Source: a virus
Lineage: Duplodnaviria > Heunggongvirae > Uroviricota > Caudoviricetes
Virus record (IMG/VR): IMGVR_UViG_3300029886_000148
DNA: 37,327 nucleotides
Direction: 5' to 3' (one strand)
Shown here piece after piece: positions 10,593 to 28,670 of this stretch (position 1 is its first letter; each line of letters opens with the position of its first letter). A program made the translations under genes and the position numbers. The notes under the pieces were generated by a model, which was not told the DNA's origin, made no database searches, and saw only the letters and a list, made by a program, of their open reading frames with translations.

Positions 10593-11159
10593 TCAGGGGG
10601 ATTCATTGCTCTTATTTGCCGGAAATTTTCTATAAATTGTGGAAACACCCACATCAAAAATCAGTGCAATACGCTGTCTTGATTCTCCGGCCTCGAGTAA
10701 ACGTCCAATCTGTGCCCACTGTTCGGTCGTCAACTTAGGACGGCGTCCACCTACTCTGCCTTTAGCACGAGCTGCAGCCAGCCCCGCCCTGGTACGTTCA
10801 ACTATCAGTTCGCGTTCCATTTCAGCCAGGGCCCCCATGACATGAAAAAAGAAACGGCCCATTGGGGTGCTGGTATCAATACTGTCAGTCAGGCTTCGGA
10901 AATTCACGCCACGCTGGCGCAACTCTTCTATCAGCGTAACAAGATGCCGCATACTGCGCCCCAACCTGTCCAGCTTCCAGACAACCAGCGTGTCTCCTGC
11001 CGATAGTGTCCTGAGCAGCTTTTTCAGCCCCGGTCTGTCGGACTTGGTGCCACTGATTTTATCCTCAAAAATCCGCTCACATCCCGCACAGTTCAGTGCA
11101 TTGCGTTGCAAATCGGTGTTCTGGTCATTTGTTGACACGCGTACATAGCCAATAAGCAT
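10593..11159 (-). CDS. serine DNA invertase, Gin/Pin/Hin family
   Basis: From the internal ATG: MLIGYVRVSTNDQNTDLQRNAL...TLVVWKLDRLGRS...GRFFFHVMGALAEMERELIVERT...; near-identical motif set to Mu Gin / e14 Pin as I remember them, with catalytic Ser in YVRVST and a C-terminal HTH. Confidence 0.9.
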   Translation of the reverse strand: MLIGYVRVSTNDQNTDLQRNALNCAGCERIFEDKISGTKSDRPGLKKLLRTLSAGDTLVVWKLDRLGRSMRHLVTLIEELRQRGVNFRSLTDSIDTSTPMGRFFFHVMGALAEMERELIVERTRAGLAAARAKGRVGGRRPKLTTEQWAQIGRLLEAGESRQRIALIFDVGVSTIYRKFPANKSNESP

Positions 11160-11214
11160 GATCATCCCCCTGAATAAAAACCGGGGATGATGCCAGTTAG
11201 CCGTAATCTCTGCA

Positions 11215-11240
11215 TTTTCTTAAACGTTGGTTTGGGAGAA
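11215..11240. repeat. invertase crossover site, left (gix/hix-like 26 bp)
   Basis: TTTTCTTAAACG-TT-GGTTTGGGAGAA; the inner 12-bp half plus core is a perfect inverted copy of the inner half of the site at 12826..12851. Confidence 0.6.
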
Positions 11241-11738
11241 GGCTCTGCATTACCTGTCGGCGTGCCTGTTCCGTGGCCTTCCGCCACTCCGCCGACAGGC
11301 TGGCTGAAATGCAATGGTGCGGCTTTTTCTGCTGAAGAATACCCGGAACTGGCAAAGGCTTACCCGACAAATAAATTGCCTGATTTACGCGGTGAATTTA
11401 TTCGTGGCTGGGATGATGGGCGTAGTGCGGATGCGGGGAGAACAATATTATCCGCTCAGGGCGATGCCATACGTAATATCTATGGTGAGTTCAAGACTGT
11501 AAACACCGAAAATTATTCAATATGGGAATCAGTAGGCTCGTTTAAGGGGGCAGTGGTGCCTTTGAACCCCTCAACGAACAATAGTTATTTCTCCTTAGTC
11601 AGAAGTATGGTGACAGAAAGGTCCGAGGGCGGTGTTTACCCAAAAGTGATTGGCCTTGATGCTTCAAGAATTGTTCCAACTGCAAACGAAAATCGACCCC
11701 GTAACATTGCCTTTAATTATATCGTGAGGGCTGCCTGA
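11229..11738 (+). CDS. silent alternative tail-fibre C-terminal segment (Sv'-like), promoterless
   Basis: Frame open from the crossover site; encodes GLGEGSALPVGVPVPWPSATPPTGWLKCNGAAFSAEEYPELAKAY...NIAFNYIVRAA, a tail-collar-type fibre C-terminus. The GLGE codons are in frame with the GLGE of H at the right crossover site. Confidence 0.7.
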   Translation, partial: GLGEGSALPVGVPVPWPSATPPTGWLKCNGAAFSAEEYPELAKAYPTNKLPDLRGEFIRGWDDGRSADAGRTILSAQGDAIRNIYGEFKTVNTENYSIWESVGSFKGAVVPLNPSTNNSYFSLVRSMVTERSEGGVYPKVIGLDASRIVPTANENRPRNIAFNYIVRAA

Positions 11739-12343
11739 TGGATAAAGCTATATTAAATAAGGAACTCATCGCCACAAAGGCGGGAGATATTACCGTTTAT
11801 AATTATGATGGTGAAACACGAGAATATATTTCCACATCAACCGAATATCTTGCTGTGGGTGTTGGTATCCCGGCATGTTCCTGTTTAGATGCTCCTGGCT
11901 CATATAAAGCTGGTTATGCAATTTGCCGTTCTGCAGATTTTAACTCATGGGAATATGTGCCAGACCATCGCGGTGAAATCGTCTATAGCACCGAAACAGG
12001 AGAATCAAAAGAAATCACAGCTCCGGGTGATTACCCTGAAAAGACAACCACTATCGCCCCGTTAACGCCATACGATAAATGGGATGGTGAGAAATGGGTG
12101 ACGGATACCGAGGCACAGCATAGAGCAGCAGTAGACATGGCAGAAACACAGCGGCAGTCGCTGATTGATGCTGCAATGGTTTCCATTAGTCTGATTCAAC
12201 TGAAATTGCAGGCCGGGCGGAAGCTGACGCAGGCAGAAAACACCCGACTTAACGCCGTGCTGGATTACACTGACGCGGTGATGGCAACAGATACCAGCAC
12301 CGCGTCAGATGTCATCTGGCCAGTTCCTCCTGAGACGGTTTAA
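11738..12343 (+). CDS. tail fibre assembly protein (alternative, tfa')
   Basis: 201 aa directly coupled to Sv' (start overlaps its stop); size and composition typical of Mu U / P2 G-type fibre chaperones. Confidence 0.75.
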   Translation: MDKAILNKELIATKAGDITVYNYDGETREYISTSTEYLAVGVGIPACSCLDAPGSYKAGYAICRSADFNSWEYVPDHRGEIVYSTETGESKEITAPGDYPEKTTTIAPLTPYDKWDGEKWVTDTEAQHRAAVDMAETQRQSLIDAAMVSISLIQLKLQAGRKLTQAENTRLNAVLDYTDAVMATDTSTASDVIWPVPPETV

Positions 12344-15736: not shown

Positions 15737-16311
15737 ACCGGGCCTCCGGTTGTGTCGCCGCCTTTCAGGACGCCAGTATGCTGATGCGCATCAACGACGA
15801 TCCCGTTAGAACTCATCACTCCGCCGCCCTGAGTAACGCCACCATTGACCACCACTTCGCTGTTAATACGCGTGCGGTCAGCCTCCAGCACAAACTCACT
15901 GGTTTTCAGGGTAATGTTGTTGGCAGCCTCAATGACCATGGATTTGATGCCCCTGACATACCAGCGCCCGGTGGCGGGTTCATATTCAAACCAGCCGCCG
16001 TCAGGATGCTCTGTCACGCAGGCATCCGCCGACGTCGACGGCGGTGCAAACTGATTCGAATAGATGGCGGGCAACGCAAAGGCGGTTTCCAGATTGCCGC
16101 CCAGACTCAGCAGCACCACCTGTTCGCCTTCCGATGGTCGCCACCATGTCCGGGCATTCCCGGCACGCAGCGTCAGCCAACTGATCCAGTTGGTTTCTAA
16201 GTCACCCGTTTTCACCCGGCAAAGCCAGTTCTTCCTATCCACTTCGGTAACTACACCAGTGCGGATCAGGTTGGTGATAAGGCGCATGATTTCGGTTAAT
16301 TGTGCGTTCAC
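15733..16311 (-). CDS. V: baseplate spike / central hub protein V
   Basis: 192 aa; OB-fold-like N-terminus and Gly-rich C-terminal tip (GGVTQGGGV...GGDTTGGPV); position as P2 gpV. Confidence 0.85.
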   Translation of the reverse strand: MNAQLTEIMRLITNLIRTGVVTEVDRKNWLCRVKTGDLETNWISWLTLRAGNARTWWRPSEGEQVVLLSLGGNLETAFALPAIYSNQFAPPSTSADACVTEHPDGGWFEYEPATGRWYVRGIKSMVIEAANNITLKTSEFVLEADRTRINSEVVVNGGVTQGGGVMSSNGIVVDAHQHTGVLKGGDTTGGPV

Positions 16312-16371
16312 CCTTCCCCCCTTAAAGGTGAACTGTATCTCAATAAGTTGTATTATTATCAGTGTTGTAGT

Positions 16372-16389
16372 TGTACTGTTAACGACACA
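16372..16389 (-). promoter_or_regulatory. putative Ogr-binding dyad (TGT-N12-ACA) of the V late promoter
   Basis: TGTACTGTTAACGACACA, ~60-80 bp upstream of the V start codon, in the short V/ATPase intergenic region. Confidence 0.45.
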
Positions 16390-16398
16390 AGGGAATAT

Positions 16399-17628
16399 AT
16401 GCTTACATCAATAAATGAAATTTATGCTCCAATTCCATACACTAATAAGACAGCAAACTTATTGCTTGACGGTAAAAACCTCATAATAACTGGTGGTAAC
16501 GGGTGTGGAAAAACTAGTTTCATTAGATCTATTTATGATTTCCTTAAAAATAAGATAGATAGACCTAATGATCATAACATCAATAATTTATACAGTACGT
16601 TAGAGTCCTACAAATATCAATTAAATAACGGCGGGCGTGACGACGTTAATTACAACTTTTATTCTGAAGAAATAAAAAACATTGAATTAAAAATTCAACA
16701 ATTAAAAGCCATTAGAATAGAAACAAAAGAAAAAGAAGGTGAAACACGTTCACTATTGAGATTTCACAAAGCTCTACGTGAAGCATCAATTACCTCGCCA
16801 GTTGCCGTTCCTAGGCTATCGGCTTTAATTAATGAAAAATCACATTTTTCTAATGAAGTAGATGGTGATGATTTCTTTGAGAATTATTTGGTTAGCTTAA
16901 AAACAGCTCAGAGCTATGCAATTTCTTTTGATAATGACCATAAGAAAGCTCAGCGGATACAGAAATGGTTTGATAAAATTGAAACTGATATGCAGGAACT
17001 TTTTGAAGATAAAAACCTCTTACTAACGTTTGATAGTAACGAAGGAAAATTTTATCTCAATCAAGATGGTAAAGATAAGTTTACTTTTCAAACATTATCT
17101 TCTGGCTACTCATCAATATTGAGAATTTACGCTGACTTAATAATGAGAGTAGAGATGTGGGGTTTAACACCTGACAGTATCGAAGGTATTATTTTTATTG
17201 ATGAAATAGATGCGCATTTACATGTTTCTTTGCAAAAGCAAATATTAAGATTTTTTAGTCACTCCTTTCCTAAAGTACAATTCATTGTCACTACACATTC
17301 TCCGTTTGTTGTTACATCCGTCACAAATGCCATCATTTATGATCTATCGACCAACGCGAAAATTAGTGATGTGTCTTCATATTCTTATGGTATCATCCTT
17401 CAAGAATTATTCGGAGTAAGTCCAATATCTAAAGTTCTTTCAGATAAGTTAGAACAACTTCAAGATATTATTGACAATATTAACAACAACAATATTGAAA
17501 CTGCCAATAACATAATACAATCCTTAGCACCTTTAGATGAATCCATGGACATCCATGCAAGTGCATTTATTGACTATGCAAAAATGCAGATACTAAAATA
17601 TAAAAAAGCAAACTCTCAGGAGAAATAA
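16399..17628 (+). CDS. ABC-type (AAA_15/AAA_21-like) ATPase, Septu PtuA-like
   Basis: Walker A LIITGGNGCGKTSF, signature-like LSSGYSSIL, Walker B IIFIDEIDAHLH, H-loop TTHSPF, with a long insertion between Walker A and B (SMC/RecF-like). AT-rich. Start taken at the ATG after an AAGGGA RBS, because the track ORF start (16300) would overlap the V start codon. Confidence 0.8.
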   Translation: MLTSINEIYAPIPYTNKTANLLLDGKNLIITGGNGCGKTSFIRSIYDFLKNKIDRPNDHNINNLYSTLESYKYQLNNGGRDDVNYNFYSEEIKNIELKIQQLKAIRIETKEKEGETRSLLRFHKALREASITSPVAVPRLSALINEKSHFSNEVDGDDFFENYLVSLKTAQSYAISFDNDHKKAQRIQKWFDKIETDMQELFEDKNLLLTFDSNEGKFYLNQDGKDKFTFQTLSSGYSSILRIYADLIMRVEMWGLTPDSIEGIIFIDEIDAHLHVSLQKQILRFFSHSFPKVQFIVTTHSPFVVTSVTNAIIYDLSTNAKISDVSSYSYGIILQELFGVSPISKVLSDKLEQLQDIIDNINNNNIETANNIIQSLAPLDESMDIHASAFIDYAKMQILKYKKANSQEK

Positions 17629-18281
17629 TGTTCAAGGTTAATAGAACATATCCTGCACCAAAGTCTCTTTCCAAGAAAGCACGTTATGATGGTGCTGATG
17701 TACATGAAGCACTACAGGAATGTTTTTATGGAAAGTGTTACATTTGCGAAACAAAGAACCCTTTGGATATAAATATTGAACATTTTAAACCCAAGGGTGA
17801 TGATGTGGAAAAAGCTTTTGACTGGGATAATTTATATCTATCATGTTCCAGATGCAACAATATAAAACTATCAAAATATGACAACATTCTTGATTGCTGT
17901 AAAGAAAAGGTATGGGATCGAGTAAAATTACTCCCAGGATATTCTTTTAAAGCAAAAAAAATAACAGTAACAGCACTATTTAATGATATTGAAACGCAGA
18001 CGACTGCTGAGCTACTTGAGAAAGTATATAATAGCGACCATACCATGAGTAAAAAATTAACTTCTGCGGCACTTCGTACCCAAGTAGTGAAAACAACTCA
18101 AAAACTAATTAAAAATATTAATGAATATTATGAAGAAGATACTCCAACAGAACAAAAAAAATACTTAATTGAAAAAATGAAGATGATGATAAAAAGAGAC
18201 GCAGCTTTTTCATCATTTTGCAGATGGATCATTATGGAAGATGCTGAATTAGGTCCAATTCTTGAACCATTTATGGATTAG
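17628..18281 (+). CDS. HNH endonuclease, Septu PtuB-like
   Basis: CYICE...NIEHFKPKG...WDNLYLSCSRCNNIK is an HNH motif set; start overlaps the ATPase stop (TAATG), indicating translational coupling. Confidence 0.8.
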   Translation: MFKVNRTYPAPKSLSKKARYDGADVHEALQECFYGKCYICETKNPLDINIEHFKPKGDDVEKAFDWDNLYLSCSRCNNIKLSKYDNILDCCKEKVWDRVKLLPGYSFKAKKITVTALFNDIETQTTAELLEKVYNSDHTMSKKLTSAALRTQVVKTTQKLIKNINEYYEEDTPTEQKKYLIEKMKMMIKRDAAFSSFCRWIIMEDAELGPILEPFMD

Positions 18282-24049: not shown

Positions 24050-25816
24050 ATGAACACCACACTGACACCCGCAGATCTCGATCCCCGTCGGCAGGCCATG
24101 CTGCTGTACTTTCAGGGATACCGCGTAGCCCGCATTGCTGAAATGCTGGGCGAGAAAGTTGCAACCGTTCACAGCTGGAAAAAACGCGACAAGTGGGGTG
24201 ACTATGGGCCGCTGGATCAGATGCAGCTCACCACCGCCGCACGCTACTGCCAGCTCATTATGAAGGAGCACAAAGAAGGGAAAGATTTCAAAGAGATTGA
24301 CCTGCTGGCGCGCCAGTCGGAGCGCCACGCGCGGATCGGTAAGTTTAACAATGGCGGCAACGAAGCTGACTTAAACCCTAACGTCGCCAACCGCAACAAA
24401 GGCCCGCGCCGTCAGCCGGAAAAGAATGTCTTCACCGATGAACAGATTGAGAAGCTGGAAGAAATCTTCCATTCCTCCATGTTCAACTACCAGCGCCACT
24501 GGTGGGAAGCCGGAAAAACCAACCGCATCCGCAACCTGCTGAAGTCACGCCAGATCGGCGCGACCTTTTACTTTGCCCGTGAAGCCCTGATTGACGCCCT
24601 GCTTACCGGACGTAACCAGATTTTCCTTTCCGCCAGTAAGGCACAGGCCCACGTCTTTAAGCAGTACATCATCGACTTCGCCAAAGAAGTGGATGTGGAA
24701 CTGAAAGGCGATCCGATGGTGCTTCCTAACGGGGCCACGCTTTACTTCCTCGGCACCAATGCCCGCACGGCCCAGAGTTATCACGGCAACCTGTATCTGG
24801 ATGAATATTTCTGGATACCGAAATTTCAGGAGCTACGCAAAGTGGCTTCCGGTATGGCTATTCACAAGAAATGGCGGCAGACCTATTTTTCCACACCATC
24901 CAGCCTGACCCACAGTGCTTATCCGTTCTGGTCCGGTGCGCTGTTCAACCGTGGACGCAACAAAGCCGACAAGGTGGACATTGACCTGTCCCACAGCAAT
25001 CTGGCCCCCGGCCTGCTGTGCGCAGACGGGCAATACCGCCAGATAGTCACCGTGGAAGATGCGGTGCGCGGCGGCTGCAACCTGTTCGACCTTGACCAGT
25101 TGCGCATGGAGTACAGCCCGGACGAATACCAGAACCTGCTGATGTGCGAGTTCGTGGACGATCTCGCGTCCGTGTTCCCGCTCAGCGAGCTGCAGGCGTG
25201 CATGGTGGACAGCTGGGAAGTCTGGACCGACTTTCATGCACTGGCACTGCGCCCATTTGGCTGGCGCGAAGTGTGGATCGGTTATGACCCGGCGAAAGGT
25301 ACGCAGAACGGCGACAGTGCCGGATGCGTGGTGGTGGCACCGCCAGCAGTGCCGGGCGGCAAGTTCCGCATTCTTGAGCGTCACCAGTGGCGCGGGATGG
25401 ATTTCCGCGCCCAGGCTGACGCCATCAAAAAACTTACCGAACAGTACAACGTGACTTATATCGGTATCGACTCAACCGGCGTTGGTCACGGGGTTTACGA
25501 GAACGTGAAAGCGTTCTTTCCTGCCGTCCGGGAGTTTGTCTACAACCCCAACGTTAAAAACGCCCTGGTACTCAAGGCTTACGACATTATCAGTCACCGT
25601 CGTCTGGAGTTTGACGCCGGACACACCGACATAGCGCAGTCATTTATGGCAATCCGTCGCGCCACCACCGCCAGCGGCAACCGTCCGACCTATGAAGCCA
25701 GCCGCAGCGAAGAAGCCAGCCATGCGGATCTGGCATGGGCAACAATGCACGCACTGTTTAACGAACCGCTGCAGGGCGAGTCTGCCAATACCAGCAATAT
25801 TGTGGAGATTTTTTGA
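24050..25816 (+). CDS. P: terminase large (ATPase) subunit P
   Basis: 588 aa; size and position as P2 gpP; reads toward cos together with Q. Confidence 0.9.
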   Translation: MNTTLTPADLDPRRQAMLLYFQGYRVARIAEMLGEKVATVHSWKKRDKWGDYGPLDQMQLTTAARYCQLIMKEHKEGKDFKEIDLLARQSERHARIGKFNNGGNEADLNPNVANRNKGPRRQPEKNVFTDEQIEKLEEIFHSSMFNYQRHWWEAGKTNRIRNLLKSRQIGATFYFAREALIDALLTGRNQIFLSASKAQAHVFKQYIIDFAKEVDVELKGDPMVLPNGATLYFLGTNARTAQSYHGNLYLDEYFWIPKFQELRKVASGMAIHKKWRQTYFSTPSSLTHSAYPFWSGALFNRGRNKADKVDIDLSHSNLAPGLLCADGQYRQIVTVEDAVRGGCNLFDLDQLRMEYSPDEYQNLLMCEFVDDLASVFPLSELQACMVDSWEVWTDFHALALRPFGWREVWIGYDPAKGTQNGDSAGCVVVAPPAVPGGKFRILERHQWRGMDFRAQADAIKKLTEQYNVTYIGIDSTGVGHGVYENVKAFFPAVREFVYNPNVKNALVLKAYDIISHRRLEFDAGHTDIAQSFMAIRRATTASGNRPTYEASRSEEASHADLAWATMHALFNEPLQGESANTSNIVEIF

Positions 25817-26841
25817 TGGGAAAGAGTAAAAAAAACCGCGTAGCGGCGATGAATCAGATCCAGCATAAAAGCCAGACTTCAGCCGAAGCATTCAGCTTCG
25901 GCGATCCCGTTCCTGTTCTGGACCGCCGTGAACTGCTGGACTATGTGGAATGCGTACAGACAGATCGATGGTATGAGCCGCCAGTGAGTTTTGACGGGCT
26001 GGCGCGCACCTTTCGCGCCGCCGTGCATCACAGCTCACCGATTGCGGTGAAATGCAATATTCTGACCAGTACCTACATCCCTCACCCGCTGCTCAGCCAG
26101 CAGGCTTTTTCGCGTTTTGTGCAGGACTATCTGGTATTTGGTAACGCCTACCTGGAGAAACGCACGAACCGATTCGGTGAAGTTATCGCCCTTGAGCCTG
26201 CGCTGGCAAAATACACCCGACGCGGGTTAGACCTGGATACCTACTGGTTTGTGCAATACGGTATGACAACCCAGCCGTATCAGTTCACGAAAGGCAGCAT
26301 CTTTCATCTGATGGAACCGGACATCAACCAGGAGATCTACGGCCTGCCCGGTTATCTTTCTGCCATTCCGTCAGCCCTGCTCAACGAATCCGCCACGCTG
26401 TTCCGCCGCAAGTATTACATTAACGGTAGTCATGCAGGCTTCATCATGTACATGACCGATGCCGCGCAGAACCAGGAGGATGTGAACAACCTCCGCAACG
26501 CGATGAAAAGCGCCAAAGGTCCAGGCAACTTCCGCAACTTGTTTATGTACTCACCTAACGGCAAAAAGGATGGTCTTCAGATTATCCCGTTGTCAGAAGT
26601 CGCGGCAAAGGATGAATTTCTGAACATCAAGAACGTGAGCCGGGATGACATGATGGCGGCACACCGCGTGCCTCCGCAAATGATGGGTATCATGCCGAAT
26701 AATGTTGGCGGGTTTGGGGATGTGGAGAAGGCATCCACGGTTTTTGTACGTAATGAATTAAAGCCTCTTCAACAACGAATTAGAGAAGTGAACAATTGGC
26801 TACATGATGACGTAATAAAATTCCATGATTACTCCTTGTAA
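25813..26841 (+). CDS. Q: portal protein Q
   Basis: 342 aa; start overlaps the P stop (ATGA); size and position as P2 gpQ. Confidence 0.9.
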   Translation: MMGKSKKNRVAAMNQIQHKSQTSAEAFSFGDPVPVLDRRELLDYVECVQTDRWYEPPVSFDGLARTFRAAVHHSSPIAVKCNILTSTYIPHPLLSQQAFSRFVQDYLVFGNAYLEKRTNRFGEVIALEPALAKYTRRGLDLDTYWFVQYGMTTQPYQFTKGSIFHLMEPDINQEIYGLPGYLSAIPSALLNESATLFRRKYYINGSHAGFIMYMTDAAQNQEDVNNLRNAMKSAKGPGNFRNLFMYSPNGKKDGLQIIPLSEVAAKDEFLNIKNVSRDDMMAAHRVPPQMMGIMPNNVGGFGDVEKASTVFVRNELKPLQQRIREVNNWLHDDVIKFHDYSL

Positions 26842-26843
26842 TT

Positions 26844-26882
26844 AAAGCCTCTTCTTTAGAAACCCATCCAAAGAAGAGGCTT
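26844..26882. terminator. hairpin between the convergent Q and NTase genes (possible bidirectional terminator)
   Basis: Inverted repeat AAGCCTCTTCTTT...AAAGAAGAGGCTT (13-bp stem). Confidence 0.4.
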
Positions 26883-26893
26883 ATTGCCACCCG

Positions 26894-27211
26894 TTATATA
26901 CCACATACAAAATTGATCTTAACGCTTTTATCAACAACAAGCAGAGAAGTGCCAACAGACTTAATAAATCCCAGTTCATACTCTTCTGAATGCGTCATTG
27001 TAATAATATGAACAGGAACAAATAAATCAAGCTCCCGCAGCTTTCGCTTCAATAATAAACCATCGACACAATCACCTATCACAAGCATATCAATATCATT
27101 TGCATCGCAAAAACTCTTTAATGCTGACCCAAATACATATACATCCACCATATATAAACTATGATGGATAATAACATCACAGATCGATTCAATCGTATGT
27201 TTAAAATTCAC
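26894..27211 (-). CDS. minimal nucleotidyltransferase (MNT/Pol-beta-like)
   Basis: VYVFGSALKSFCDANDIDMLVIGD fits the GS-x9-13-DxD nucleotidyltransferase signature; ~105 aa; GTG start overlaps the upstream stop; AT-rich. Confidence 0.7.
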   Translation of the reverse strand: MNFKHTIESICDVIIHHSLYMVDVYVFGSALKSFCDANDIDMLVIGDCVDGLLLKRKLRELDLFVPVHIITMTHSEEYELGFIKSVGTSLLVVDKSVKINFVCGI

Positions 27212-27870
27212 TACCGTGAAATTCTTCGTAATAAATCACCCAACTTGTAAAGCTCCACCCCGATACTTTGAGCAGCCTCTTTTGCCTGAGTCGTCAATCG
27301 TCCATTAGGATTGGAGGAAAAAACAACATCACAATTGCCATGCAACCCTATCGCATCTCTTACAGAACCCGCTGTCATATCATAATCATTCGCAGCGATA
27401 ATAACTAAGTCCGCCAAGCCACGTCTTTTAAGTCTATATTTTTTGTTGGTTTCTCGCTCTACAGAGCTTACATGTGAATGTTGATTGAACACTCTATTTA
27501 TAAACAAATGCTCTTTATCAAGATGCTCAAGCGGATTATTAGCTCTTAAAGAAGATGCAATATGCCCAAATGAACCCACTCCTATTTTCTTTTGTTCTAG
27601 TAATCTCATTGCATCACCAGAGATAAATTCAACACCTCCCTTGACTGATAGAAAATCAATTTTTTTATTGTCTAGGTATTCATTTATCTCAGGACATGTT
27701 ATCCGGCCAGTATTGATTGCCCCGATCAAATAGGTGTCACCCTGTGTAGTATTAATCACTAAAGTACCATCACCTATCACCTCTATATTTTCGACACATT
27801 TATTTTCTTGTAATTTTCCTGCCATCCATGAAATATAGCCTTCACTCGCATTTATGCTCATTGGATTCAT
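27211..27870 (-). CDS. hypothetical protein, 219 aa (middle gene of the three-gene cassette)
   Basis: Open frame translationally coupled on both sides; no motif assigned (only a C-terminal R-x5-H, RDAIGLH). Confidence 0.55.
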   Translation of the reverse strand: MNPMSINASEGYISWMAGKLQENKCVENIEVIGDGTLVINTTQGDTYLIGAINTGRITCPEINEYLDNKKIDFLSVKGGVEFISGDAMRLLEQKKIGVGSFGHIASSLRANNPLEHLDKEHLFINRVFNQHSHVSSVERETNKKYRLKRRGLADLVIIAANDYDMTAGSVRDAIGLHGNCDVVFSSNPNGRLTTQAKEAAQSIGVELYKLGDLLRRISR

Positions 27871-28562
27871 CCTATAAATAGTTCAGATGCAGCTTCTGGA
27901 AACCTACTACCATTAGCATCGGTTAAGCCCAAATGTTTTGATTCAAAGTCATCTATATGAACACAAAGCTTTGAAAAAACATTCTTCTCATCTTCACTCA
28001 TGAGGTGATAGTTTTGTTCAACCAGTCGCTGTACTTTTCTATTGTTGGGTAAGATATGAGATTGTACTTTTCTTAACCATACTTCTGCATTTGGATTTTC
28101 AGGGTCAACGCTGTTCTCTTGGGTTGGTCCATATGTTACAAAAATGGTATTGTTTTCTCTGAAGTATTTTTCTAACTCCTGTCTAACAGATTCTCGATTG
28201 TCATATGTTTTAACACCAAAGGTTGCATTTATTTTATCAATATGGCCGTTTTTCCAAGAGCGGATAATTTCATCAGTAAAATGTTCCTCTGCCTTATCAA
28301 TTGTCGTATGGCAATTAGCACATAGAAGAATAATGTTGTCAAAATGACCTCTCTGCTCATCAGTTAGATCAGCATTGGTTCTAGGTCCATTATCAATGGC
28401 ACTAAAGATGTGAGCAAGTTCTCCAATTGTTATATTTTTGTCGCCAGCATCAACAAACAAAGGTTGCAAGCATTGTGGATTTTGGCAAAAGCCACCTGAG
28501 CTGGCAAAAAGCCGTCTAACTGTATTAGCGTTTGGGGAAGCTTTTCCCCTACTGCAAGCCAT
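27867..28562 (-). CDS. HNH-motif protein with an unassigned C-terminal domain, 231 aa
   Basis: CQNPQC ... ELAHIFSA ... NIILLCANCHTTID resembles an HNH/zinc-finger nuclease core in the N-terminal ~90 aa; the rest is unassigned. Confidence 0.6.
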   Translation of the reverse strand: MACSRGKASPNANTVRRLFASSGGFCQNPQCLQPLFVDAGDKNITIGELAHIFSAIDNGPRTNADLTDEQRGHFDNIILLCANCHTTIDKAEEHFTDEIIRSWKNGHIDKINATFGVKTYDNRESVRQELEKYFRENNTIFVTYGPTQENSVDPENPNAEVWLRKVQSHILPNNRKVQRLVEQNYHLMSEDEKNVFSKLCVHIDDFESKHLGLTDANGSRFPEAASELFIG

Positions 28563-28651
28563 GAACTAACCTTAAAAGTATAGAAATTAGGATGTTAATT
28601 TATTACTGAACAACCCTATAAGCAAGCTTGCTAATTGTGGTGAGCGCGCGC

Positions 28652-28670
28652 TCGTATCCCCGCCACGCCT
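28652..28670 (-). other. putative cos site (cohesive-end sequence)
   Basis: Minus strand reads GGCGTGGCGGGGATACGAGCGCGCGCT..., which resembles the P2/186 cohesive ends as I remember them (P2 GGCGAGGCGGGGAAAGCAC, 186 GGCGTGGCGGGGAAAGCAT); orientation points toward Q as in P2. Confidence 0.45.

Follow-up and report, generated by a model that had tools for sequence, protein, structure and literature searches.

What do three small genes of unassigned function do beside the packaging site of a prophage? The IMG/VR virus record IMGVR_UViG_3300029886_000148, a stretch of 37,327 nucleotides (the window, in whose coordinates positions are given), holds a complete P2/186-like prophage of E. coli, which carries three coupled minus-strand open reading frames (ORFs) between its portal gene Q and cos. 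An earlier note on this DNA, made from the sequence alone, had described them as an HNH-like protein, a protein without assignment and a minimal nucleotidyltransferase at 26894-28562, and we found all three where it had placed them. We name the products protein P1 (231 amino acids, aa), protein P2 (219 aa) and protein P3 (105 aa), which are distinct from phages P1 and P2. The best explanation of the whole seems to be a self-contained, horizontally mobile three-component conflict module, most likely anti-phage, carried as cargo in a cos-proximal hotspot, and we hold this reading with confidence somewhat above even. A defence function is likely, judging from the location, the linkage of the genes, the type of effector and the neighbours. 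The protein P1 gene (27867..28562) and the protein P2 gene (27211..27870) start with ATG and the protein P3 gene (26894..27211) with GTG, all on the minus strand. Both junctions described by the earlier note can be seen in the sequence: the plus-strand tcat at 27867-27870 reads ATGA on the minus strand, where the P1 and P2 genes overlap, and the plus-strand cacta at 27209-27213 reads TAGTG, base 27211 being common to the stop of P2 and the start of P3. The RefSeq start of protein P2 is Met4 (216 aa), which leaves a 5-bp gap and no overlap with the P1 gene; the same start is used by half of the close protein P2 homologues.

The cassette forms the AT-rich block that the earlier note had reported in a GC-rich backbone, with a GC content of 0.35-0.38 over 26800-28600 against 0.52-0.57 in the flanking structural genes. 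It follows gene Q (25813-26841, plus strand, a Phage_portal homologue). Within 26842-28996 only the stretch 28643-28798 is common to other P2/186/Fels-2-like phages (43 records, 88-96 % identity). This cos region resembles the annotated cos of phage P2 and contains a 186-like core cohesive-end sequence at 28651..28669 (reverse complement GGCGTGGCGGGGATACGAG). Because the core lies in the sole shared block, which marks the right boundary of the insertion, the cassette is placed between Q and cos. On the gpA side of the conserved cos block, within 28700-28760, there is also a GC-rich hairpin, gcccgccattcctggcgggc. In the phage P2 record cosL occupies 1-19, the terminator tQ lies at 160-181 and gene Q begins at 187. 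The short spacer stated in the earlier note is therefore real: the interval from Q to cos measures 167 bp and contains tQ alone, and the cargo genes tin and old are on the opposite side of cos.

Between the stop codons of Q and P3 lies a hairpin of 13-16 bp (26845..26882; RNA fold -26.4 kcal/mol, z -6.5), directly followed on the minus strand by UUUAAUU. As tQ of phage P2 is annotated at the same relative place, the hairpin is likely a bidirectional terminator and the counterpart of tQ; if it replaces tQ, a single terminator serves the cassette and the Q-P operon from opposite sides. At the other end, the non-coding leader of 88 bp between cos and the start of protein P1 (28563..28650, minus strand) must hold the promoter and ribosome-binding site of the cassette. 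The sequence AAGG is found 8 nt upstream of the P1 ATG, and a sigma-70 scan of the leader returned no consensus-grade promoter. No RNA family from Rfam was identified in 26500-30200.

Protein P1 seems to be the effector. All motifs quoted in the earlier note are present in the translations (CQNPQC, ELAHIF and NIILLCANCH in protein P1, RDAIGLH in protein P2, VYVFGS-x9-DIDMLV in protein P3), and the HNH assignment of protein P1 was borne out. Residues ~8-120 (28203..28541, minus strand) form an HNH domain of the Cap5/SPARHA/LmuA type with zinc-binding Cys pairs, in which all catalytic and zinc residues are present and invariant across homologues. PADLOC (2023 model set) matched protein P1 to PDC-M68A (2e-29), to Cap5-type 'SAVED_HNH' effectors (1e-22) and to SduA; all these matches are confined to residues ~8-120, and those from PDB likewise end at ~120. 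Among solved structures the best match of the HNH head is HNH-APAZ of SPARHA (2e-16). The ~140 aa that the earlier note had left unassigned required correction, as residues 121-231 (27870..28202, minus strand) fold as a conserved four-helix bundle, presumed to be a coupling or regulatory domain. By analogy with Cap5, SPARHA and CTD10 effectors, protein P1 is predicted to be a metal-dependent, DNA-degrading HNH effector with the bundle as its docking or control domain. Full-length homologues fall into at least 376 clusters at 45-50 % identity, across phyla. In the supplement of the DefensePredictor study (PMC13092281), protein P1 (WP_000752436.1) is listed as a predicted novel defence gene with a mean log-odds of 5.96; in the part of the supplement that was searched it appears as a prediction row only, with no sign of experimental testing. 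A HEPN reading of RKVQSH in protein P1 was rejected because the motif is unconserved, and an isolated and weak match to AbiQ (0.0028) was disregarded.

The nature of protein P2 was more difficult to determine. The protein is an internal tandem duplication of an alpha/beta domain that appears to be distantly restriction-endonuclease-like. Foldseek searches against PDB gave nothing significant; its structural neighbours include the restriction-endonuclease-fold proteins Can2, Card1 and Cap4, and in the case of Can2 and Card1 the nuclease-fold domain alone aligns, with a poor root-mean-square deviation (rmsd) over two domains. In a set of 62 homologues no acidic or Lys residue is conserved at the strand 2/3 positions of the catalytic D...(D/E)xK motif, and the conserved residues are Q130, H131, R149, Y163 (98 %), R171 and D181. 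Because the nuclease motif is lost and this polar set is kept, protein P2 is presumed to be a binding or scaffold module, or a sensor. An exhaustive profile search recovered 289 representatives at 50 % clustering. The earlier note had pointed to a possible R-x5-H motif (RDAIGLH); this did not hold, nor did the HEPN reading built on it, as the fold is alpha/beta and appears nuclease-like and H177 is unconserved outside enterobacteria. One protein P2 homologue had an AbiEi-like match (0.0057), isolated and weak, which we disregarded. No family in NCBIfam, Pfam, PHROGs or PADLOC covers protein P2 or protein P3; the PADLOC check proposed in the earlier note matched the HNH head of protein P1 only.

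For protein P3 the signature of a minimal nucleotidyltransferase noted earlier was supported. Residues F27, G28, S29, D39 and D41 are 100 % conserved in 66 homologues and E76 is conserved in 97 %. The family profile aligned in PDB to the minimal nucleotidyltransferases 2rff (0.0099) and HI0073, and the Pfam scores (Polbeta 0.0023, NTP_transf_2 0.0086) both fell short of the curated cut-off. Position 68, opposite the third catalytic Asp of HI0073 in the alignment, is His in 37 of the 66 homologues and Asp in 29; the prophage protein itself has His, as does 56 % of the family. We take protein P3 as a predicted active minimal Pol-beta-type nucleotidyltransferase with the catalytic set GS/DxD/(D or H) intact. 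No PADLOC cyclase model matched the prophage protein, and one homologue faintly matched a CBASS cyclase model (0.034; CBASS, cyclic oligonucleotide-based antiphage signalling system).

We scanned one genome per species with the protein P1 profile, which gave 80 loci, and ran hidden Markov models (HMMs) of all three families against the six-frame ORFs of these loci. The order P1-P2-P3 is kept on one strand in 63 of the 80 loci, with full-length protein P2 in 58 and with a single (C-type) domain of protein P2 in five. Nine further loci encode a single fused ORF of 390-479 aa. The rest have P1 and P2 only (2/80), P1 and a P3-like gene only (1/80), P1 only or a contig end (4/80), or are cut by a contig end (1/80). 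In 24 of the 63 loci with all three genes in order, the P2 stop and the P3 start share exactly 4 bp. Over these 63 loci the three proteins diverge in step: their pairwise identities are correlated (Spearman 0.67, 0.46 and 0.40, reached by none of 500 permutations), and therefore the three genes travel together. Protein P1, with a median identity of 44 %, is much better conserved than protein P2 (25 %) and protein P3 (31 %). The linkage is far beyond chance.

In eight of the nine fusions a single chain combines the HNH domain and the bundle with one P2-type domain and ends in an FGS...DxD nucleotidyltransferase; in the remaining one the nucleotidyltransferase is the next ORF. Fusions of 463-479 aa, found in Halomonas, cyanobacteria, Chloroflexota and Desulfobacterales (L076 5992-7389, a 465-aa protein of Halomonas halodenitrificans; L077, L078, L081, L083-L085, L087), are without the N-type half of protein P2. 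A single P2-type domain thus appears sufficient, and full-length protein P2 would mimic a dimer of this domain. From these natural single-chain proteins we infer that protein P1, the P2-type domain and protein P3 probably act in one complex, probably 1:1:1.

The hosts comprise Alpha-, Beta- and Gammaproteobacteria, Bacteroidota, Actinomycetota, Cyanobacteria, Chloroflexota, Planctomycetota, Acidobacteriota, Gemmatimonadota and Omnitrophota. From Actinomycetota to Bacteroidota the trio is conserved and co-evolving, and it is no oddity of E. coli. Of the 5,426 complete E. coli genomes searched, 14 have an identical cassette, among them ATCC 8739, where all three genes are annotated as hypothetical. 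None of 50,697 phage records contains the cassette, and neither do the 43 relatives among them that share cos. Word-based searches and the gene lists of Hymenobacter and Pseudomonas had suggested that the nucleotidyltransferase is an enterobacterial accessory. This was wrong, because public gene calls had missed the P3 gene; six-frame ORFs and HMMs recovered it in nearly all loci. The gene is omitted from the public calls, for example, in Hymenobacter (L006 6313-6651) and Pseudomonas atacamensis (L007 6359-6766). Surveys based on annotation therefore see a two-gene module, so that the trio is under-counted and the system under-detected.

Regarding the genomic context, the cassette consists of variable genes between gpA (30115-32529, minus strand) and Q, adjoining cos. 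This interval of P2-like phages is a documented hotspot of anti-phage systems (Rousset 2022; Vassallo 2022; PMC9122126; PMC9519451), and the tested cargo of such slots is overwhelmingly anti-phage. It is also the site of tin/old and many validated systems. The WP identifiers of all three proteins are in Table S5A of PMC9122126, as 'hypothetical' only. Their sequences are absent from the supplements of that study that we searched, including the table of tested systems, and neither sequences nor identifiers were found in the supplements searched of PMC9519451. We did not equate the cassette with the system of '3 hypothetical proteins' of Rousset, which protects against phage P1, as the cassette sequences are absent from the tables of tested systems. 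At least five divergent alleles are known (protein P1 identity 100, 84, 69, 67 and 64 %), and those with examined context, among them the 69 % and 67 % alleles, adjoin the portal gene of P2-like prophages, as does the cassette of one further locus.

Outside this slot the trio was found in a Pseudomonas prophage, on a Vibrio plasmid and, in Pantoea ananatis, in the hotspot of a P4-like satellite (Psu, Ogr/Delta, integrase), where it adjoins a type I restriction-modification (RM) system or a Gabija-like pair of AAA_15/OLD-TOPRIM and UvrD. In one locus AbiH is three genes away from the trio. A shortened form of the cassette is located in a conjugative-element region of Klebsiella plasmids; in K. 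pneumoniae plasmid pS141.1 (L092 4998-6316) a 222-aa HNH protein is followed by ORFs of 135 and 61 aa among conjugative-transfer genes. We screened 146 proteins flanking ~38 loci with PADLOC and Pfam, and as raw counts, the PADLOC hits were LmuB of Lamassu (three), MADS mad3 (three), AriA of PARIS (two), type I RM, AbiEi/AbiEii, HEC-01 and PDC candidates, and the Pfam hits included four integrases. The architecture expected by the earlier note, a cargo module of defence or toxin-antitoxin (TA) type, is thus supported by the hotspot site, the linkage across phyla, the HNH type and the DefensePredictor score, from which we infer defence.

How could such a module work? Protein P1 would be the effector, its nuclease inert until the C-terminal domain drives assembly, as in the Cap5, SPARHA and LmuA systems; here the four-helix bundle would replace SAVED, APAZ or CTD and couple the nuclease to proteins P2 and P3. 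Protein P2, a seemingly catalytically dead pseudo-dimer, may serve as a scaffold or sensor that binds nucleic acid or nucleotide without cleaving it. As the full catalytic set is kept, protein P3 should transfer nucleotides, and it might set the state of the complex enzymatically in this way. A nucleotidyltransferase as small as this, encoded beside a nuclease, has to our knowledge been studied well in one case only, that of MntA, which modifies the HepT toxin by AMPylation of a tyrosine. In the version that we prefer on this precedent, protein P3 would nucleotidylylate a partner and so keep the nuclease off, with Tyr163 of protein P2 as a speculative candidate target; infection would then relieve the block and protein P1 would degrade DNA. 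Covalent control is favoured over a diffusible signal because of MntA and because the fusions make such a signal unnecessary. Three elements of this scheme are conjectural: which way the regulation runs, what the nucleotidyltransferase acts on and what triggers the module.

Several points weigh against a defence module working in this manner. Our literature search found no experiment on any member of the family, and in the supplementary tables searched the entries for the proteins read 'hypothetical' or 'predicted novel defence gene' and nothing more. The DefensePredictor score of protein P1 varies (standard deviation 4.5, minimum -3.0), and proteins P2 and P3 had no entry in the part of the table that was searched. 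In other phyla many neighbours are housekeeping genes (ETF, electron transfer flavoprotein; GMP synthase), and the tallies of defence neighbours are raw counts. The assignment of protein P3 combines sub-threshold scores with motif conservation, and no result favours protein over nucleic acid or free nucleotides as its substrate. The fused variants, moreover, would argue against models that need differential stability of separate subunits.

Other explanations have to be considered. The cassette might be a TA or addiction module that stabilises the mobile element, in which protein P3 enzymatically neutralises the toxin P1 in a type VII-like manner and no dedicated anti-phage function exists. Minimal nucleotidyltransferases are the antitoxins of HepT-MntA, the architecture is that of a nuclease with a neutraliser in strict linkage, and the low GC content, the patchy distribution and the occurrence on plasmids, ICE-like (integrative and conjugative element) regions and prophages would all fit. 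There is no HEPN partner, however, the tested cargo of the slots occupied is overwhelmingly of another kind, namely anti-phage, and defence genes are frequent among the neighbours, so we regard this explanation as unlikely. Many TA modules act as abortive-infection systems, and the two roles are not exclusive. Quite unlikely, in our opinion, is CBASS-like signalling, in which protein P3, completed in trans by the P1 bundle, makes a nucleotide signal or short oligonucleotide upon infection and the P2 pseudo-dimer binds it and switches P1 on. The closeness of the HNH head to Cap5, the role of Pol-beta-fold nucleotidyltransferases as CBASS signal makers, the presence of Can2, Card1 and Cap4 among the structural neighbours of protein P2 and the faint cyclase match of one P3 homologue speak for it. 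Protein P3 of ~100 aa, however, is without the helical half of CD-NTases, there is no SAVED or CARF domain, Can2 and Card1 align over the nuclease-fold domain only, and single-chain fusions remove the point of a diffusible messenger.

Another candidate is a restriction-like nuclease without a methylase, in which protein P2 reads a feature of DNA (modified bases, ends, structure) and directs the HNH protein to cut foreign DNA directly, while protein P3 tails or marks DNA ends. We consider it improbable, as our searches recognised no DNA-reader domain such as SRA or a winged helix, sequence searches place the HNH head with abortive-type effectors and not with McrA, and we know of no role for a nucleotidyltransferase in restriction systems. 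Finally, the cassette adjoins Q, P and cos, and in other groups of phages an HNH protein encoded next to the terminase is known to act as a cofactor of packaging. As in HK97-like phages, the HNH protein could thus help to package DNA or to cleave cos; it could also be a homing endonuclease with passengers. The distribution argues strongly against both: neither the phage records nor the cos-sharing relatives among them contain the cassette, no more than 14 of the 5,426 E. coli genomes carry it, phage P2 packages without it, and many phyla have the trio on chromosomes, plasmids or satellites where no terminase gene is close by. Moreover, the cassette is transcribed convergently to the Q-P operon. 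We rejected this explanation as close to refuted.

Returning to the anti-phage conflict module, the most specific form of the proposal is an unnamed immune system of many phyla. Its Cap5-type HNH DNase would be under the joint control of a nucleotidyltransferase of ~100 aa and a duplicated, dead protein of nuclease fold, the nucleotidyltransferase acting by covalent nucleotidylylation of a non-HEPN partner. We offer this form tentatively, as possible rather than probable. If true, infection sensing would be coupled to the HNH head in a fourth and independent manner, in addition to SAVED, APAZ/Argonaute and SMC-type Lamassu, and type VII TA chemistry would be extended to DNase-based immunity. 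Knowing how the HNH head is switched in the cassette could also bring to light an undescribed role of nucleotidylylation, of proteins or of nucleic acids, in immunity. Hotspots of phages P2 and P4 are a proven source of new immune systems and count the trio among their unannotated occupants, and the natural single-chain fusions are convenient for biochemistry and structure work.

The remainder of the window shows the recognisable genes of the prophage and further cargo. Terminase gene P is located at 24050-25816 (plus strand), CI, CII and the integrase are at the right end of the window and a host permease gene is at the left end. A complete Septu system occupies a second cargo site among tail and baseplate genes (16300-18281, plus strand, opposite to the cassette), with PtuA at 16300-17628 (PADLOC 1e-139) and the HNH protein PtuB at 17628-18281 (2e-99); its presence in the prophage speaks in favour of the defence reading of the cassette. 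The gpA side of cos holds cargo at 28997-30063: a GNAT acetyltransferase (28997-29416, plus strand, Pfam 4e-10), a DinI-family protein (29529-29834, minus strand) and a 96-aa ORF overlapping the latter gene (29773-30063, minus strand). In E. coli ATCC 8739 the position of the GNAT gene is taken by another one, which encodes a hypothetical protein of 225 aa. The segment 10593-12343 looks like an invertible host-range segment, with a Hin/Cin-type serine invertase (10593-11165, minus strand), a tail-collar fragment (11187-11738, plus strand) and a tail-fibre assembly gene (11738-12343, plus strand). Directly downstream of gpA, in the early-gene region, lies a Dam-like orphan N6-adenine methyltransferase (32526-33443, minus strand; Pfam MethyltransfD12 1e-77, PADLOC orphan methyltransferase 1e-111).

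We compared the cassette with the known systems to which its parts are related. The Cap5-type HNH domain of protein P1 is common to CBASS Cap5 (HNH-SAVED; PDB 7rwk, 7rwm, 8fm1), but the cassette is without SAVED, whose place is taken by the four-helix bundle, and without a CD-NTase (cGAS/DncV-like, about 300+ aa), protein P3 being a minimal nucleotidyltransferase of 105 aa; it has, in addition, the duplicated nuclease-fold protein P2. SPARHA (short prokaryotic Argonaute with HNH-APAZ; PDB 9om4, PMC12738770) shares the HNH head, and its effector is activated by assembly, but there is no Argonaute and no APAZ in or beside the cassette. HNH-type Lamassu/ABC-3C has a similar layout, with three genes and the effector first. 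The head of HNH-type LmuA is of the same type as that of protein P1 (hhalign probability 99.3 %, residues 10-121), and in both effectors the C-terminal helical domain presumably docks to the two partner components. The cassette, however, has neither an SMC/ABC ATPase (LmuB) nor the middle component LmuC; its partners are instead a dead nuclease-fold pseudo-dimer and a nucleotidyltransferase. A relation of the protein P1 C-terminal domain to ABC-3C CTD10 was rejected, as none was detectable with Pfam or hhalign: there is no Pfam match to CTD1-12 and the helical domain does not align with CTD10. On Blastomonas plasmid pBSY18_4 (L090 4983-7779) we observed a Lamassu-type operon of HNH-CTD10 followed by MC6 and a DUF2326 ATPase. 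Since the same head is fused there to CTD10, the HNH head appears to be a swappable effector cassette.

Protein P3 resembles the nucleotidyltransferase of HepT-MntA (type VII TA; HI0073/HI0074) in its size, in GS...DxD...D(H), of which GS and DxD are the mark of a minimal nucleotidyltransferase, and in being encoded beside a nuclease. In contrast to HepT-MntA, proteins P1 and P2 have no HEPN domain or conserved Rx4-6H, with no HEPN Pfam match at E<=1, the nuclease is a DNase-type HNH, there are three components, and the third catalytic residue is His in the larger part of the family. The best PADLOC match of protein P1, PDC-M68A, belongs to the unvalidated candidate PDC-M68; it covers the HNH head only (profile positions 8-110 of 253), PADLOC has no model for the other two proteins, and no paper describing PDC-M68 was found in the literature search. 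Nor did this search, which covered openly accessible papers, return a name for the three-gene system; with no library naming proteins P2 and P3, the earlier note was right not to recognise a named system.

The cassette therefore lacks the defining features of CBASS, HEPN-MNT, Lamassu and SPARHA, while its effector head is common to CBASS, Lamassu and SPARHA and its type of nucleotidyltransferase to HEPN-MNT. With the cassette, the HNH head is now seen on four or five control modules (SAVED, APAZ, Lamassu CTD, Shedu-like and the present type), and the switching mechanism of the cassette would test activation by assembly as a general rule for the HNH effector. We classify the cassette as probable nuclease-effector defence cargo; its three-component architecture is well defined and widespread and has yet to receive a name.

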